Shown here: positions 10,208 to 59,430 of the stretch, piece after piece
Layout of the letters: each line of letters begins with the position of its first letter
Numbering within the stretch: the stretch's first letter is position 1
Source of the DNA: an uncultured Actinomycetes bacterium
GTDB taxonomy: Bacteria > Actinomycetota > Thermoleophilia > Gaiellales > Gaiellaceae
Reading direction: 5' to 3'
DNA length: 64,000 nt
NCBI GenBank assembly: GCA_963720065.1
Contig: CAVREH010000018.1
Span: 7,083-71,082, forward strand
Notes under the pieces: model-generated
Databases searched by the model: none
Seen by the model: only the letters and a program-made list of their open reading frames with translations
What the model was told of the DNA's origin: nothing
Made by a program: the position numbers and the translations under genes

Positions 10208-10662
10208 CTCGCGTTGCCGGGCGAAGAGCTGCGCTCTTCGCCCGGGGTTGAAGGAACTGCGCCAACCGGAGACGCGGTCTCCGGTTGGCGCCGTGCAGTA
10301 GGGCTTGCCTGGGTTGGCACGCTTCCAACGCTTTGTTCCGTCGCGGGCGAGCAGGCTTTGCGTGCTCGCCCGCTGGTTCGCGGCGTCGTAACGTGCCGTT
10401 ACGCCGCCGCCTCGACCCACAGAGGCTCGAAACGCTCCAACCCGACCAACGACCAAAGCCCGGAGGCTAAGACACGGCGCAGCCGGACTTAGCCGCAGGC
10501 CGGACCGCGCTCGTGCCGGCCTCTGCCGCGCGCGAGCGCACGACACAGGCCTCCGCCCCACAGAGCATCAAATTGAAACTGCACGAAGCGGGCCGGAAAC
10601 CGCGCTTTCCGGCCCGCGGAGTTCCGTATCCCAGCGAGTGAGTGCGCAGCACTCGCGAGCTA
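10205..10662 (+). repeat. ~455-bp multi-hairpin intergenic element, copy 1 of 2 (candidate structured RNA or MITE-like repeat)
   Basis: Aligns end to end with 37276-37730. It runs from the TAG stop of the permease gene to the CTA (reverse TAG) stop of nadA. Terminal inverted repeat is tagctcgcg...cgcgagcta. At least 7 GC-rich hairpins are visible. Confidence 0.85.
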
Positions 10663-37278: not shown

Positions 37279-37730
37279 CTCCGGACGAAGAGCTGCGCTC
37301 TTCGCCCGGTCCTGAAGGAACTGCGCCAACGGGAGAGCGCGGTCTCCCGTTGGCTTCGTGCTGAGGGCACATTGGGTTGGCTCGCTTCCGACGCCTTCTT
37401 CCGTCGCGGGCGAGCAGGCTTTGCGTGCTCGCCCGCTGGTTCGCGGCGTCGTAACGTGCCGTTACGCCGCCGCCTTGGCGCTACAGAGGCTCGAGACGTT
37501 TCAACCCGTGCTGCGCAAGAGGCCGGAGGCTAAGACATCCGCAAAGCGGTGACTTAGCCGCAGGCCGGACTGCGCTCGTGCCGGCCTCTTGCCGCGCGCG
37601 AGCGCACGACACAGGCCTCCGACCCAACAGAGCCTCAAAGCGAAACTGCACGAAGCGGGCCGGAAACCGCGCTTTCCGGCCCGCGCAGTTCCGTTATGCC
37701 AGCGAGCGAGTGCGCAGTACTCGCGAGCTA
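37276..37730 (+). repeat. ~455-bp multi-hairpin intergenic element, copy 2 of 2
   Basis: Collinear with 10205-10662. It includes an identical 68-nt block (gcgggcgagcaggctttgcgtgctcgcccgctggttcgcggcgtcgtaacgtgccgttacgccgccgcc). It is bounded by the TAG of the + sigma gene and the CTA of the - sigma gene. Confidence 0.85.
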
Positions 37731-53263: not shown

Positions 53264-53889
53264 GCACCAACGTCTTCGAGCTTCCCGCCCACGACGGCGA
53301 GGCGGCGCGCAAGCTCACGCCGGCGGACTGGGCGCGCCTCGAGCGCAACGCGGCCGAGATCCTCGCCGCGCTCGGTCTCGACCTCGACACCCCGGGCACG
53401 CACGACACGCCGCGCCGGTTCGTGCGGGCGCTCTATGACGCGACGGCCGGCTACGACGGCGACCCGAAGCTGCGCACCGTGTTCCCGACCGAGCGCCCCG
53501 AAGGCGTCGAGGGACGGCATGCCCAGATCGTCGAAGGCCCCGTCGGCTTCTACGCGCTGTGCGAGCACCACGCGCTGCCCTTCCACGGACGCGCCTACGT
53601 CGGTTACGTCGCCGGCGACGAGATCCTCGGCATCTCCAAGCTCACTCGCCTCGTGCGGCTCTACGCGCGCCGCTTCACGGTGCAGGAGCGGATGGCGGAG
53701 GAGATCGCGGACGGCCTGCAGGAGCTGGCGGGCGCGCGCGGCGTCGCGGTGAGGCTCGAGGCCGCGCACATGTGCACCGCGATGCGCGGCGTCGAGGAGG
53801 ACGGCTCCCTCACGGTCACGACGGTCTGGCGCGGCCTGTACGACGAGGATGCCGCCCTGCGCTCGGAGTTCCTTAGTCTGACGCGATGA
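53260..53889 (+). CDS. folE: GTP cyclohydrolase I FolE
   Basis: The ATG overlaps the upstream stop (ATGA). THDTPRRFVRAL, LCEHHALPFHGRAYVGY, GISKLTRLVRLYARRFTVQERM and AAHMCTAMRGV are present. Intact. Confidence 0.93.
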   Translation: MSTNVFELPAHDGEAARKLTPADWARLERNAAEILAALGLDLDTPGTHDTPRRFVRALYDATAGYDGDPKLRTVFPTERPEGVEGRHAQIVEGPVGFYALCEHHALPFHGRAYVGYVAGDEILGISKLTRLVRLYARRFTVQERMAEEIADGLQELAGARGVAVRLEAAHMCTAMRGVEEDGSLTVTTVWRGLYDEDAALRSEFLSLTR

Positions 53890-54049
53890 TCCACCGGGCA
53901 CTGCGGCCCCGAATCCGGGTCGCGAGCACCAAGCGATGCGAGGACGCAGGGAGGGCCGATAGCGGCGCCTATCGGCGCGACCGAGGACGCCGCAGCGCGC
54001 AGCGTGATCGCGGGCCGGAGCGAGGCATGTAGTGGCGGGTGGATCATCG
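53884..54049 (+). repeat. ~165-nt hairpin-closed intercistronic element, copy A (candidate cis-acting RNA motif)
   Basis: The 12-bp perfect closing inverted repeat is cgatgatccacc/ggtggatcatcg. The core is GGACGCAGGGAG, a hairpin (ccgatag/ctatcgg), then CGCGACCGAGGACGC. This core is shared with the reverse complement of 58036-58198. Confidence 0.75.
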
Positions 54050-54851
54050 ATCGAGCCGTTCAGGGTCCTCGCGGAGGACGAGGACCTGCCGCGGTGGGAC
54101 GTCCCCGAGCAGCTCGTGGAGCTCTACGGCGGCGCGATCGGCCTGGAGGAGCCGTGCGTCGTGGCGAACTTCGTCGAGTCGCTCGACGGCGTGGTGGCGG
54201 TGCCGCGGCTGCCGCGCTCGCACGCCGTGATCGGCGACGAGAGCGAGGCCGATCGGTTCGTCCTCGCCCTCGTGCGTGCGTGCGCCGATGCGGTCGTCGT
54301 CGGCTCCGGCACGCTGCTCGCCTCGCCGCAGGGGACGTGGCGGATCGACCGCGCGTATCCGCCGGCCGCCGAGGCGCTGGCCGAGCTGCGCGCTCGTCGC
54401 GGTCGCTCGGCGCAGCCCCTCGTCGTGGTCGTCACCACGGGCGCCTCGCTCGATCCGGCCCACGCGGTGCTCGAGTCCGGTGCGCTCGTGCTCACGACCG
54501 AGGCGGCGGCGGACGGCCTGCGGGCGTCGGTCCCGGACGCGGCGGAGGTCGTCGCCGTGAACGACGGCGAGACGGTCGACCTCGCGCGGGCCCTAAACGT
54601 GCTGCGCGACCGCGGCTGCTCCGTGATCCTGACGGAGGCAGGCCCGTCGCTGTTCGGCTCGCTCGTGGCCGCGGGGCTCGTGGACGAGCTCTTCCTCACC
54701 GTCTCCCCCGTCCTCGCCGGACGTGGCGCCACCGCGCGGCTCGGCCTGGTCGAAGGCGTCGAGCTCGTCCCGCAGACGCGAGTCGCCGGCCGGCTCCGCT
54801 CGGTGCGGACCCAGCGGCTCGCACCTCTTCCTCCGCTACGGGCTCCGCTAG
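54032..54851 (+). pseudogene. RibD C-terminal domain (dihydrofolate reductase-like) family reductase, one frameshift ~54805; start 54032 or ~54113
   Basis: CVVANFVESLDGVVA, ADAVVVGSGTL, ILTEAGPSLFGSLVAAGLVDELFLTVSPVLAG are present. The tail GSHLFLRYGLR lies in another frame and ends at TAG 54849-54851. Confidence 0.75.
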
Positions 54852-55153
54852 CCGGGCTTGTTGAGCTGCCGGTAGAGCCGGTCGATCAGCGCCGGCATCG
54901 CCTCGAGCCGGTCCGTGATCACCCGCAGGCGGTACTCCCGGAAGTGCTCGGGCTCGACCTCGAGTGCGTCCGCGAGCGTGGCCACCACGTCGTTCGACGG
55001 CACGGGGCGATTCCCGTGCACGAGGTGGTTGAGGTATCCGGCCGAGAGCCCGGTGCGCGCGGCGAGCTGCCGGTACGTGACTGCCTGCTCGTCCATCAGG
55101 CTCTGGACGGTCTCGCCGAACCCCTCCTCGCTGAACCGACGCCGCTTGGCCAC
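54848..55153 (-). CDS. XRE-family helix-turn-helix transcriptional regulator
   Basis: The HTH is LMDEQAVTYRQLAARTGLSAGYLNHLVHGNRPVPSNDVV. The GTG start lies 3 nt after the proS stop. Confidence 0.85.
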   Translation of the reverse strand: MAKRRRFSEEGFGETVQSLMDEQAVTYRQLAARTGLSAGYLNHLVHGNRPVPSNDVVATLADALEVEPEHFREYRLRVITDRLEAMPALIDRLYRQLNKPG

Positions 55154-55156
55154 GTC

Positions 55157-56815
55157 CTAGACCTCCTTGCCGAGATCGGCAACATCTAATCGGTTCTCGG
55201 CGCCGCTTGCGCGATTTCGCACGTCGACTTTGCCGTCCTCGAGGCTCTTGCGGCCCGCCGTGATGCGGATAGGGCACCCGATCAGGTCGGCGTCGGCGAA
55301 CTTCTCCCCCGCCCTCTGGTCGCGATCGTCGAGGAGGACGTCGAGACCTGCCGCCGACAGAGCCTCGGCTGCCTGCAGCGCGATCTCCTCGGCGCCCGGC
55401 AGCGCTACGACGTGCGCGTCGTACGGTGCGACCGCCTGCGGCCACACGATCCCGTTCTCGTCGTGCGACTGCTCGACGACGGCTGCCATCGTGCGCGCGA
55501 GGCCGATGCCGTAGCTGCCCATGACGAGCGGCTTCTCCCTCCCGTCCTCGTCCAGAAACGTCGCGCCGAACGGCTGCGAGTGGAACGTGCCGAGCTTGAA
55601 GATGTGGCCGACCTCGATCGCCGTCTGGATGCGGAGCGTGCCGCCGCACTCGGGGCAGGCGTCACCGTCCTTCGCCTGGCGGATGTCGGCGAAGGTCGGC
55701 TCGTAGTCACGGCCGGCCTGGACGCCGCGGAGATGCTTGCCGTCCTCGTTCGCGCCGGCGACGTACTGGCCCTCGCGGAGCGCCTCGTCGGCGATCACCT
55801 CGAGGTCGACCCCGACCGGCCCGAGCGAGCCTCCGCCCGCTCCGAAGGCGGCCCGGATCTCCTCGTCCGTCGCCGGGCGGAATGCCGCCTCGAAGAACGT
55901 CTCGAGCTTCCCTTCGCTCAGCTTGTCGTCGCCCCGCACGAGCGCGAGCACCAGCCGGTCGCCGGTCACGACCGGCAGGGCCTTCGAGGTCGCGGACGGC
56001 GCGACCGAGAGGAACGCCGCGAGCTCGTCGATCGTCCCGACGCCGGGCGTCTCGACCACCTCGGGGGCATCCAGCGGAGGAGGCAGCTCCGCCTGAGGAG
56101 GCGCGCCGCGTGCGGCCTCCGCATCGGCGAAGTAGTCGCCGTTCTCGCAGCGCATCAGCTCGTTCTCGCCCGAGCCCGTCGGTGCCAGGAAGTCCTTGGA
56201 CTCCTTGCCGCCCATAACCCCGGACTCGGCCTCCACGAGATAGGCCTCGAGGCCGCAGCGCTCGAAGATCCGCCGGTACGCCTCCTCGTGCCTCGTGAAT
56301 GCGGCCTCGAGCCCGGCCTCGTCGGCGTCGAACGTGTACGAGTCCTTCATGATGAACTCGCGCAGGCGCAGGAGGCCGCCGCGCGGGCGCGGCTCGTCGC
56401 GGTCCTTGGTCGAGAAGTGGTACCAGACCTGCGGCAGCTGCTTGTACGACTGGATCTCGCGCGCGAGGAACGTCATCGACTCCTCGTGCGTCCACGAGAG
56501 CACGAACCGCCGGCCGCCGCTGTCGTTCAGGTGGAACAGGATCGGGACGTCGATACGGCCGGTCGTCTCCCAGAGCTCGGCGGGCGTGAGCGTCGGAGCG
56601 CGCATCTCCTGGCCGCCGATCGCGTCGATCTCCTCGCGGATGATCTGCTCGATCCGCATGTGCACGCGCCAGCCGAGCGGCAGCATCGCCCAGAGCCCGG
56701 CCCCGATCTGGCGGATGAAGCCGCCGCGCACGAGCAACTGGTGCGAGGCAGCCTCCGCGTCGGCGGGCGGCTCGCGCAGGGTCGGCAGGAAGAGCTGTGA
56801 GGCTCGGGCGATCAT
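55157..56815 (-). CDS. proS: proline--tRNA ligase
   Basis: Intact 552 aa. HQLLVRGGFIRQ, LSWTHEE, FRDEPRPRGGLLRLREF-like and GSYGIG motifs are present. Confidence 0.95.
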   Translation of the reverse strand: MIARASQLFLPTLREPPADAEAASHQLLVRGGFIRQIGAGLWAMLPLGWRVHMRIEQIIREEIDAIGGQEMRAPTLTPAELWETTGRIDVPILFHLNDSGGRRFVLSWTHEESMTFLAREIQSYKQLPQVWYHFSTKDRDEPRPRGGLLRLREFIMKDSYTFDADEAGLEAAFTRHEEAYRRIFERCGLEAYLVEAESGVMGGKESKDFLAPTGSGENELMRCENGDYFADAEAARGAPPQAELPPPLDAPEVVETPGVGTIDELAAFLSVAPSATSKALPVVTGDRLVLALVRGDDKLSEGKLETFFEAAFRPATDEEIRAAFGAGGGSLGPVGVDLEVIADEALREGQYVAGANEDGKHLRGVQAGRDYEPTFADIRQAKDGDACPECGGTLRIQTAIEVGHIFKLGTFHSQPFGATFLDEDGREKPLVMGSYGIGLARTMAAVVEQSHDENGIVWPQAVAPYDAHVVALPGAEEIALQAAEALSAAGLDVLLDDRDQRAGEKFADADLIGCPIRITAGRKSLEDGKVDVRNRASGAENRLDVADLGKEV

Positions 56816-56833
56816 CGGCGTTGTCGCCCTAGG

Positions 56834-57969
56834 CTATTCGAGGGGGATCATCGACGCTTCGGCCATGGCCAGGGCGGCCGGCTTCGCCATCTTGAGGCGC
56901 TTCGGTCGGTGCATCCCGTCGGCGATCCACCTGTCGATCTCGTGGAAGAGCTCGTCGATCAGGATGTCTGAGCTGACCTTCTTAGCACGCGGCCGTGCGC
57001 GTAGATGAAGCCGACGTCGCGGCCGCCTGCGATGCCGAAGTCGGCGTCGCCCGACTCGCCCGGGCCGTTGACCGCGCAGCCGAGCACCGCGACCTCGAAG
57101 TGCCTGCGGGTAGTCCTGCAGCCGTCGCTCGACCTCCTCGGCGAGCGTGTGGACGCCGACGTTGTCGCGGCCGCAGCTCGGGCAGGCGATCATCACCGGC
57201 CCGCGCTCGCGCAGGCCGAGCGCTTTGAGGATCTCGTACGCCGTCTTCGGCTCCTCGACCGGGTCGGAGGAGAGCGAGACGCGAATCGTGTCGCCGATTC
57301 CCTCGGCGAGCAGCGTGCCGATCCCGACGGCGCTCTTGATCGAGCCGGCGAAGACGGTGCCGGCCTCGGTCACGCCGAGGTGGAGCGGGTACGTCGACCT
57401 TCTCCGAGAGCATCCGGTACGCGCGGATCATCGTCGGCACGTGGCTCGACTTGACGGAGATCTTGAAGTCGTAGAAGTCGAGGCTCTCGAGCAGGCGCAC
57501 CTCCTCGAGCGCGGCCTCGACGAGCGCCTCGGCCTGATCCTTCTGCGCGAGCTCCTCGAGGTGCTTCGGCAGCGAGCCGGAGTTCGCGCCGATCCGCATC
57601 GGGATCCCCTTCGCCTTCGCCGCGCGCGACGACCTCGGCGACCTTGTCGGGGCCGCCGATGTTGCCGGGGTTGATGCGCACCGCGGCGACGCCCTGGTCG
57701 ATCGCCTTCAGCGCCAGGCTCGCGTTGAAGTGGATGTCCGCGATGATCGGCACCGGCGAGAAGCGGACGATCTTCGAGAGCGCCTCTGCGTCCTCCGTCT
57801 TCGGCACCGCGACGCGGACGATCTCGCAGCCCGCGCTCGCGAGCGCCGCGACCTGCGCGGTGGTCGCCTCGACGTCATGCGTCTTCGTCGTCGTCATCGA
57901 CTGCACGACGACGGGCGCGCCGCCGCCGATCTTGACGCCGCCGACCGAGATCTGCCGCTTGCTGGCCAT
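56834..57969 (-). pseudogene. ispG: 4-hydroxy-3-methylbut-2-en-1-yl diphosphate synthase IspG, ~4 frameshifts
   Basis: [58 protein letters not shown] and the C-terminal tail lie in ORFs 57370-57969, 56982-57599 and 56834-57373, plus short bridging pieces. Confidence 0.88.
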
Positions 57970-58035
57970 CCGGGACTCAGTCTAGCCCCGCGGGTTCCCG
58001 CCGAACCGCGCCCTCAGAGGACGCTGAGACGGCTT

Positions 58036-58198
58036 AGAACTCGTCTCGAAATGAAGCACGGACTGCCCGGCCGCGCTGGTCGGCGCGATCCTGCGTCCTC
58101 GGTCGCGCGAATAGCGCTGCTATTCACGCTCCCTGCGTCCTTGTCTCGCACTCGACCATCGCACCCGGTCAGCGCGTGGTCATCCCGAGACGAGTTCT
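58036..58198 (-). repeat. ~165-nt hairpin-closed intercistronic element, copy B (reverse strand)
   Basis: The 13-bp perfect closing inverted repeat is agaactcgtctcg/cgagacgagttct. The reverse complement carries GGACGCAGGGAG, a hairpin (gaatag/ctattc), then CGCGACCGAGGACGC. It abuts the rseP stop codon and lies upstream of ispG. Confidence 0.75.
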
Positions 58199-59430
58199 CA
58201 GTGCGGCGCGCCGGATAGGTCGTTCGAGAACGCGATCACCATGACGAGCAGGATGAAGGCGAAGCCGACGACCGAGACGCGCTCGTAGACCTCACGGGCG
58301 AGAGCGCGCCGGCGGACCGCCTCGATGAGCGAGAAGAGGATGTGGCCGCCGTCGAGCGGCAGGAGTGGCAGTAGATTCAGCAGCGCGAGCGACATGCTCA
58401 CGAACGCGAGGATCTCGAGGTAGTGCGTCAGGCCGACCCGCAGCTGCTGCTGCGAGACCTCGACGATCCCGACCGTTCCCGAGAGCTGGCTGCGCCCCTG
58501 GCTGGAGAAGAGCCCGCGGAGCCCGGTCGCCGTTCCGGTCGACGACGCTCCAGAGGTCCGATCCCGCGGTGGTGGCTGCTCTGCCGGTCGAATACGGGAC
58601 GATCTGCGCCTCGGGCTCGAAGCCGAAGATCCAGCGGCCGCCGAGCTTGACCGTGTGGCGCGGCCCGACCTCGACCCGCTGCCCGTTGCGCAGCACCGTC
58701 AGCGTCGACCTCGCGCCCGTGGCTCGCCCTGATCCGACCCGACGCAGCGTCGAAGGTTCTCGTGCGGTCGACCGTTGACGGCGACGATCCGGTCCCCGGG
58801 CTGCAGGCCCGCCGCCGCCGCCGGAGTGCCGCTCTCGACCGCGGCCACCTGTGCGGAGGCGCGCGACGACGGGCCTCCGCTGATGGCGAAGACGAGAAAG
58901 AGGATCGCGAAGGCGACGAGGATGTTCGCCAGCGGTCCGGCGGCGATGACGGCGATGCGCTTCCACGTCGCACCGTGCCAGTAGGCCTCGGGCGAGGTGC
59001 CCTCCTTCACGTCACGGAGCACTCGCTCGGCCGAGCGTCTCGCCCGGGGCGTCAGCTCGGCGGCGCTCACCTCGCGCTCGAGCTCGAAACAGGCGTGCCG
59101 CGCAGTGTCGTAGTCCTCTGCCTCGAGAGCGCGCCGGACCGCTCCGACAGCCGGCACAAGGCTGGGCTGCTCGCGCATGGCCGGCTCCAGGAACAGGCTC
59201 AGGTCCCGCGCGGCCGGCCGGTTCATGCCGGGAAGCTGGACCATGCCGCCGAGCGGGATCATCCCGATCCCGTACTCGATGCCCTTGCGCTGGATCTTGA
59301 AGAGAGCGGGCGGGAAGCCGATGTAGAAGCTCCGCGGCCGCATCCCGACCGCGCGCGCGACCGAGAAGTGACCGAGCTCGTGCAGGAAAACGAGCAGGAC
59401 GAGGCCGGCGATGACGACGAGCCAGGTCAC
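58198..59430 (-). pseudogene. rseP: RIP metalloprotease RseP (site-2 protease, M50 with PDZ), several frameshifts
   Basis: LLVFLHELGHFSVA (HExxH), a PDZ piece (PAAAAGLQPGDRIVAVNG) and the C-terminal LALLNLLPLLPLDGGHILF lie in different frames. GTG 59430 overlaps the dxr stop (GTGA). Confidence 0.85.

Follow-up and report, generated by a model that had tools for sequence, protein, structure and literature searches.

A palindromic insertion between rseP and ispG represents an undescribed, probably MITE-like family of foldback elements in Thermoleophilia

Results

The rseP-ispG spacer and its palindrome

The window, by which we mean the whole stretch of DNA analysed (64,000 nt, 71% G+C), carries a 161-nt imperfect palindrome on its minus strand between rseP and ispG, at positions 58037–58197; this sequence is termed copy B. 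The ORF ending at 58198–58200 on the minus strand corresponds to the C-terminus of an M50 (RseP-type) peptidase, as judged by a Peptidase_M50 match, and the ATG of ispG lies at 57967–57969, 67 nt from copy B. Contigs from other public runs part from the window right after position 58198 and before approximately 58031, which sets the boundaries of copy B; the location and coordinates proposed in an earlier note on this DNA were right to 1–2 nt.

Read on the minus strand, copy B comprises a 5′ arm (58143–58197) with the terminal motif GAACTCGTCTCGGGATGA and an inner GCGATGG motif, the 5′ strand of a core (AAGGACGCAGGGAG, 58129–58142), an apical hairpin P3 of 11 bp with loop AGC (58106–58128), whose pairing is kept and whose sequence differs among copies, the 3′ strand of the core (CGACCGAGGACGC, 58093–58105) and a 3′ arm (58037–58092). 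The outer inverted repeat is perfect over 12 bp (GAACTCGTCTCG at 58186–58197, CGAGACGAGTTC at 58037–58048). The TGA stop codon of rseP (58198–58200, minus strand) constitutes the left T-N-A flank and a TAA (58034–58036, minus strand) the right one, and both may be copies of a target-site duplication with one mismatch. A small hairpin native to the spacer (TCTCAG-CGTCCT-CTGAGGG, 58011–58029, minus strand) lies outside the element. On the gene strand, copy B is predicted to fold as a single long hairpin of −107.7 kcal/mol (z = −9.4 against 200 shuffles), compared with −87.3 kcal/mol for the opposite strand. It contains no ORF, being a hairpin sequence with stop codons at both ends.

Both genes adjoining copy B, ispG (56834–57969) and rseP (58198–59400), are split over three frames by single-base indels (positions 57627, 57392, 57103, 56984, 58764, 58718 and 58541), whereas dxr, proS, folE and cdsA are intact. 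Public metagenome contigs have the frame-restoring base at the same positions of ispG and rseP, and the indels are probably errors of the assembly consensus and not marks of pseudogenes.

A second copy downstream of folE

Copy A occupies positions 53885–54048 of the plus strand (core at 53941–53990), 3′ of folE, whose stop codon (53887–53889) falls inside its 5′ arm; its outer inverted repeat is perfect over 11 bp. Copies A and B share a core, which reads AGGACGCAGGGAG-hairpin-CGACCGAGGACGC, and both have the polarity of their flanking genes, as the earlier note had stated. The hairpin sequence differs between them yet pairs in both, and their arms, unrelated in sequence, still pair within each copy. 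With a covariance model of the core, exactly two copies (161–164 nt long) were retrieved from the 64-kb window, scoring 75.1 (B) and 63.7 (A) bits, the next match being at 13.5 bits.

The window also holds an unrelated non-coding repeat of about 420 nt (10217–10627 and 37281–37694; 91–96% identical) with several GC-rich hairpins, which gave no Rfam match at E up to 1 save one chance match. Its copy at 37.3 kb sits between two convergent sigma-70 paralogues.

Empty sites at the orthologous loci

In metagenomes, 80 loci orthologous to that of ispG were compared (N-terminus of ispG 82–99% identical), and none has the core upstream of the gene. The nearest empty rseP-ispG sites read cacTGA-ggcgcc-TCAGCGTCCTCTGAGGG; they belong to relatives of only about 83% DNA identity, so that "recent", applied to the insertion, is a relative term. 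At the same site the window reads cacTGA[GAACTCG...CGAGTTC]TAAgccgtcTCAGCGTCCTCTGAGGG, and aligning the two places copy B directly after the stop codon of rseP. The small native hairpin, found in empty sites as well, is intact downstream of the insertion point. A contig from a metatranscriptome matches copy B at about 94% identity over 58031–58198 and has unrelated flanks.

At the other locus, folE and RibD_C overlap by GTGA, with zero spacer, in four relatives (FolE 87–91% identical); the FolE of the window has its closest homologues in Gaiellaceae. Insertion of copy A broke this overlap. The TGA was retained by folE, and the RibD_C frame now opens at a GTG (54032) in the 3′ arm of copy A, likely its new start codon, with about six residues added; an extra TCGA beside the junction sets this GTG in frame. 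The flanks of copy A are irregular, with a 6–7-nt inverted copy of the left flank in addition to the extra TCGA. The RibD_C ORF of the window (54032–55189) encodes 385 aa vs 267 aa in relatives, where RibD_C is separated from proS by a small HTH gene; a further frameshift, or the loss of a stop, may lie behind this.

No hairpin and no sequence resembling the outer arms was detected at the insertion point in any of the 80 rseP-ispG or the 4 folE-RibD_C empty loci, which indicates that the outer arms arrived with the element. Copies A and B are both insertions relative to all orthologous sites examined, and the arms of copy B travel with it. This bears on one of the two readings offered in the earlier note, namely that a small mobile element inserts into the loop of pre-existing GC-rich hairpins directly after stop codons. 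Empty sites retaining such a hairpin were sought in relatives at both loci; those encountered have none, so that the proposed hairpin target has to be abandoned for these two copies, while the small mobile element devoid of its own transposase stands. In its literal form (a core unit of about 75 nt placed in the loops of terminator hairpins, the outer stems being native host sequence), the reading is refuted for copies A and B.

Copies, distribution and arm classes

The exact 22-nt core pattern GGACGCAGGGAG-N14-44-CCGAGGACGC occurs at no fewer than 120 loci when one genome per species is considered. Among the matches listed, all are MAGs of Thermoleophilia type, labelled Solirubrobacterales, Gaiellaceae, Thermoleophilaceae, Conexibacter, Miltoncostaeaceae or unclassified Actinomycetota. 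Searching 730 kb of these loci with the model yielded 13 further copies (about 1 per 56 kb), each with 1–3 core substitutions, and the density in carrier genomes is roughly one copy per 30–60 kb. Rfam 15, including its 6S RNA and self-cleaving ribozyme families, has no match to the element with either the gathering score or a permissive E of up to 10 as threshold, no relevant paper on the core sequence or on palindromic elements in Thermoleophilia/Actinobacteria was found in the searchable literature, and a distant blastn search of PLSDB plasmids gave no match. IMG/VR yielded a single match, an exact core at L205:601-649 on a 15.7-kb contig (IMGVR_UViG_3300026300_000009). Copy B belongs to an undescribed family.

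Members are non-coding and measure about 100–180 nt. They fall into a long class (arms of about 57 nt, total about 165 nt), which includes copies A and B, and a short class (arms of about 28 nt, total about 105 nt). The same arm types are met with in different genomes: that of copy B begins with GAGCTCGCTTCGGAATGA or a variant of it, and others with GGAGGGCTTGGCGGAA or GTGGTGCCTCCGGTGA. Three elements of one MAG (loci L017, L044 and L111) are 97–99% identical, with flanks that are unrelated from the CTAG boundary outward. In the window and in about 1.3 Mb of fetched loci, neither an autonomous partner or IS nor solo terminal repeats were found, and terminal arm sequences adjoin cores only.

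Several loci hold more than one copy. Two elements on the same contig, 24 kb apart (L077:2449-2625 and L116:6020-6200), are 95.5% identical over the inner 156 nt and differ in their outermost 12–15 nt, each pair of ends being still complementary. Two copies lie 100 nt apart at L030:3539-3717, an element is abutted by the 3′ end of another copy at L112:3095-3282, and three contigs (L002, L079 and L042) have three copies each within 6–8 kb.

The recurrence of long-copy arms between and within genomes speaks, like the empty sites of A and B, against outer stems made of host sequence. The arms of short copies are what would best agree with a host origin: their outer 12–18 nt are different in every copy, and at L100 and L206 they contain a copy of the neighbouring greA 3′ end, GTCGGCTGA. 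However, direct repeats between flank and arm show no general excess (5.2% vs 3.5% in the control), and the one syntenic empty greA-trxB site (L208), in which the two stop codons overlap in CTAG, has no hairpin. Insertion of a bare core into terminator loops is, for the family as a whole, very improbable.

The two greA loci deserve a description of their own. In each, a short copy lies between convergent greA and trxB (L100:2780-2900 and L206:1975-2075), and its arms hold a second greA 3′ end (GTCGGCTGACC) as well as the codons for the last TrxB residues, PKVG*. In L206 the same G-to-A change is present in both direct greA copies, which hints at conversion between them. The comparison rests on L208 as the only syntenic empty site, the other relatives having different neighbours.

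Target sites, stop codons and gene context

Copies are almost always situated at the 3′ ends of genes, in either orientation, with a stop codon in or beside the stem base, usually 0–10 nt inside the stem foot. Many copies have direct flanks, which are CTTAG on both sides at L087, L114 and L013, TAA at L046 and L107, and CTAG at L111, L004, L103 and L043. Of nine copies with the arm type of copy B, six have an identical T-N-A on both sides, two show an inverted form and the ninth is copy B itself (TGA/TAA). The length of the target-site duplication reads as 2, 3, 4 or 5 bp, the targets being palindromic. Three-bp T-N-A or TWA duplications are typical of IS5/PIF-Harbinger transposases, and TA or CTAG duplications of IS630 or IS5 types.

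For 65 copies both flanking genes could be classified, giving 27 convergent, 36 co-directional and 2 divergent contexts; within the 36 co-directional ones, the element is antisense to the genes in 27 and sense in 9. The flanking genes belong to 154 Pfam families on one side and 148 on the other, with at most three members each and ordinary housekeeping functions. Among the matches listed, no gene family recurs beside the copies, and none of the other loci has an rseP, ispG or folE context.

These data can be set against the second reading of the earlier note, that copy B is a cis-acting RNA controlling the distal gene. According to it, the spacer would hold a conserved regulatory RNA of the dxr-rseP-ispG operon that governs ispG by attenuation, processing or a riboswitch-like mechanism, in keeping with the polarity of the element in the operon, its position 67 nt upstream of ispG and its very stable structure. 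Nevertheless, the element is absent from 80/80 orthologous spacers, no adjacent gene family recurs within the approximately 300 Pfam families represented, and the copies occur in both orientations, more often antisense. A cis-regulatory RNA or riboswitch of the pathway was rejected as an identity, the position relative to a recurrent gene family not being conserved. We consider control of ispG by such an RNA the least probable of all the readings discussed here, nothing indicates that copy B has been selected for ispG regulation, and the claim is not upheld. Copy B is a passenger insertion and not a dedicated ispG regulator.

The structured core and covariation of the stems

The core is near-invariant and the most conserved part of the element, a conservation that is partly by construction, 100 of the 113 aligned copies having been found with the exact core pattern. 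It can be drawn as G-C, [GA/AG], C-G, [GCA/GA], G-C, G-C, [GA/AG], G-C, that is, as a predicted helix of irregular shape in which three tandem G·A/A·G motifs lie among G-C pairs. Pairing is maintained in the variant cores: C64 is changed to U opposite G in six copies, L206 has a double change of (G25, C63) to (U, G), and in L042 GA/AG is replaced by AA/GU.

In a model-fitted alignment the covariation score is 0.476, vs 0.159 in shuffles (0/500 reach the observed value) and at most 0.163 with slid partners. In the 34 long copies, compensatory changes affect 37 of the 43 predicted pairs and are present in the apical hairpin, the inner stem and the 20-bp terminal helix.

Wobble pairs in the outer arms are biased towards one strand. 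In long copies there are 252 G·T vs 65 A·C pairs (P = 4e-27) and in short copies 40 vs 18, the excess of wobble pairs falling invariably on the GGACGC strand irrespective of how the neighbouring genes run; the G·T:A·C counts are 28:14 when genes run with the element, 76:26 when they run against it and 55:26 when they converge on it. Folding of the short copies on the opposite strand was discarded as a candidate: the signal came from a conserved AA/CC internal loop by the core and is gone in the outer arms. With a host RNA function the bias should track the strand that is transcribed, and with a purely double-stranded transposon it should be absent. In the simplest reading, element lineages have been filtered through a step at which the GGACGC strand is folded. 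We infer that a folded single-stranded form, be it DNA or RNA, would be needed for the element's own propagation, and this folded strand probably serves as the recognition module for a mobilising protein or a host factor.

A bolder proposal is that the core, with its three tandem G·A motifs and co-varying apical hairpin, functions as a single-stranded RNA or DNA motif read by a dedicated protein, the family then being moved in a novel way, or being a structured-RNA module that is itself mobile, and not an ordinary IS deletion derivative; we offer it tentatively, as more doubtful than likely. If it were true, a transposition intermediate consisting of a folded single strand would have left its mark in the strand-specific compensatory evolution, even though the element leaves target duplications.

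Transcription and a possible role as host RNA

No U-tract follows copy A or B, a terminator scan of positions 53700–58400 returned 0 sites, and no sigma-70-type promoter is present. An intrinsic (rho-independent) terminator was rejected as an identity, both copies being GC-rich hairpins without a U-tract. Full-length copies with their flanks are present in soil and sediment metatranscriptome contigs, a copy B-like one at a depth similar to that of the neighbouring genes; these contigs are unstranded and may include DNA, and they show at most read-through transcription.

Such contigs would be compatible with a functional structured RNA module that was spread by transposition and then kept by the host, acting as a U-tract-independent 3′-end terminator hairpin, an mRNA stabiliser, an RNase III site or a protein-binding RNA, and modulating in the window the rseP/ispG mRNA. 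The strong covariation with G·U-type wobble pairs, the near-invariant core, the strict confinement to 3′ ends of genes, away from promoter regions between divergent genes, and, in copy B, a sense fold about 20 kcal/mol more stable than the antisense one could all be accommodated by this explanation. Against it speaks the wobble bias, which follows the strand of the element and not the transcribed one: the folding strand is antisense in 27 of 36 co-directional contexts with the bias unchanged. Neither a U-tract nor a canonical terminator accompanies the copies, no Rfam family is matched even at E up to 10, and the same sites in relatives lack the element. Retention by the host as an RNA seems unlikely to us.

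A bias tied to the element strand regardless of genomic context would be expected if the element moved as a hairpin of single-stranded DNA through the action of a structure-specific enzyme, either an HUH/Y1 transposase (IS200/IS605, REP-RAYT) or an attC-type recombinase. Recognition would then take place at the core, with the stem foot joining the two cleavage points, in agreement with the conserved non-Watson-Crick core between variable but compensated stems, with the two discrete arm lengths (approximately 28 and 57 nt, as if measured from the core) and with insertion directly 3′ of a short motif. Against this stand the identical direct 3-bp flanks of 6/9 copies of the copy B type, as "peel and paste" elements make none, and the orientation of the copies, which shows no link to local GC skew, taken as a gauge of replication-strand bias (50 vs 58). 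Moreover, the GTAG or CGTC tag that REPs have beside a short stem is missing, and no RAYT or TnpA gene appears among the neighbours of the copies in the top Pfam family lists. We regard mobilisation through such an enzyme as improbable, somewhat more so than a host RNA.

Discussion

Copy B is, in our judgement, probably a non-autonomous foldback transposable element of MITE-like type, belonging to a family spread through the class Thermoleophilia. The features of a MITE that were found are a non-coding sequence below approximately 500 bp, terminal inverted repeats and dispersed copies with presence/absence among related genomes. Some observations fit this interpretation poorly. The window and about 1.3 Mb of retrieved loci yielded neither a transposase nor a related autonomous IS sharing the terminal repeats, and neither copy in the window is flanked by a clean duplication (TGA vs TAA for B, irregular for A). 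Furthermore, a classical cut-and-paste MITE conserves its ends while its middle drifts, which is the reverse of what is seen here, and a mechanism acting on double strands accounts neither for the compensatory changes nor for the wobble bias on one strand.

Under the MITE-like interpretation, a transposase acting in trans, possibly IS5- or PIF-Harbinger-like, would cut C-TNA-G or CTAG-like sites with a short stagger. Such sites would be rare in a genome of 71% G+C, a stop codon being the one place where insertion would be harmless, and the duplication would rebuild the stop (here TGA...TAA). With the stop rebuilt by the duplication and disruptive insertions removed, surviving copies would pile up on stop codons. 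In the window, copy B would be carried within the dxr-rseP-ispG transcription unit, where it would give the mRNA a very stable hairpin 67 nt before ispG.

The window hairpin should be annotated as a repeat insertion and not as a regulatory RNA of an isoprenoid operon. More generally, the family is a dispersed element of an abundant class of soil Actinomycetota that had hitherto been included in no RNA family library or searchable paper, and it would illustrate how landing on stop codons and rebuilding them lets a transposon persist where genes are dense and G+C is high. In one case, that of copy A, a translationally coupled gene pair was split and what is likely a new start codon donated. The invariant G·A-rich core and the one-strand covariation provide a testable handle on the recognising factor, and the core is also a handy sequence marker for Thermoleophilia in metagenomes.

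Several known systems of small repeats invite comparison. REPs are sequences of 20–40 nt with an unpaired GTAG or CGTC tag beside a stem of 8–13 bp (PMC3733652), and identity with such REPs was rejected, as the size and ends of the element do not fit. Like REP/BIME-RAYT systems, the copies are palindromic, extragenic, located just after stop codons and often without a transposase gene nearby; recognition as folded single strands may be counted as a further likeness. They differ in their length of 100–170 nt, in lacking a tag beside a short stem and in the presence of putative target duplications.

The attC sites of integrons are imperfect palindromes of 57–141 bp located after stop codons, with conserved outer R''/R' motifs (RYYYAAC / GTTRRRY) and a variable centre. 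The element resembles them as an imperfect palindrome lying directly after stops, with variable stems and, presumably, one active strand and recognition of the structure through conserved unpaired features. In contrast to attC, its centre is the conserved part, R''/R' motifs are absent, it has CTAG or T-N-A ends and adjoins housekeeping genes instead of cassettes; identity with attC was discarded on the outer core sites and the cassette context. The palindromic elements of Rickettsia (RPEs) insert in frame within genes, and the mycobacterial MIRUs are tandem repeats with small ORFs. Both recall the present family as small repeats tolerated in operons or genes whose ends mesh with stop and start codons, as those of copy A do, but neither has sequence or structural similarity to it.

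Hairpin MITEs are represented in bacteria by Correia/NEMIS of Neisseria and ERIC/IRU of enterobacteria, and Tourist-type MITEs belong to the IS5/PIF-Harbinger superfamily. With bacterial and Tourist MITEs the element shares a length of 100–170 bp, the non-coding character, an inverted repeat over the whole length, dozens of copies, a location between genes, in transcribed DNA and in either orientation, apparent short target duplications of TA or T-N-A and the lack of an own transposase. Unlike in MITEs, the centre of the element is conserved, near-identical across several orders, the terminal repeats are of several unrelated types, the stems show compensatory change with a wobble bias on one strand, and insertion is almost exclusively on stop codons. 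What sets the family apart from ordinary MITEs, and where its remaining interest lies, is a conserved structured core together with strand-specific covariation.
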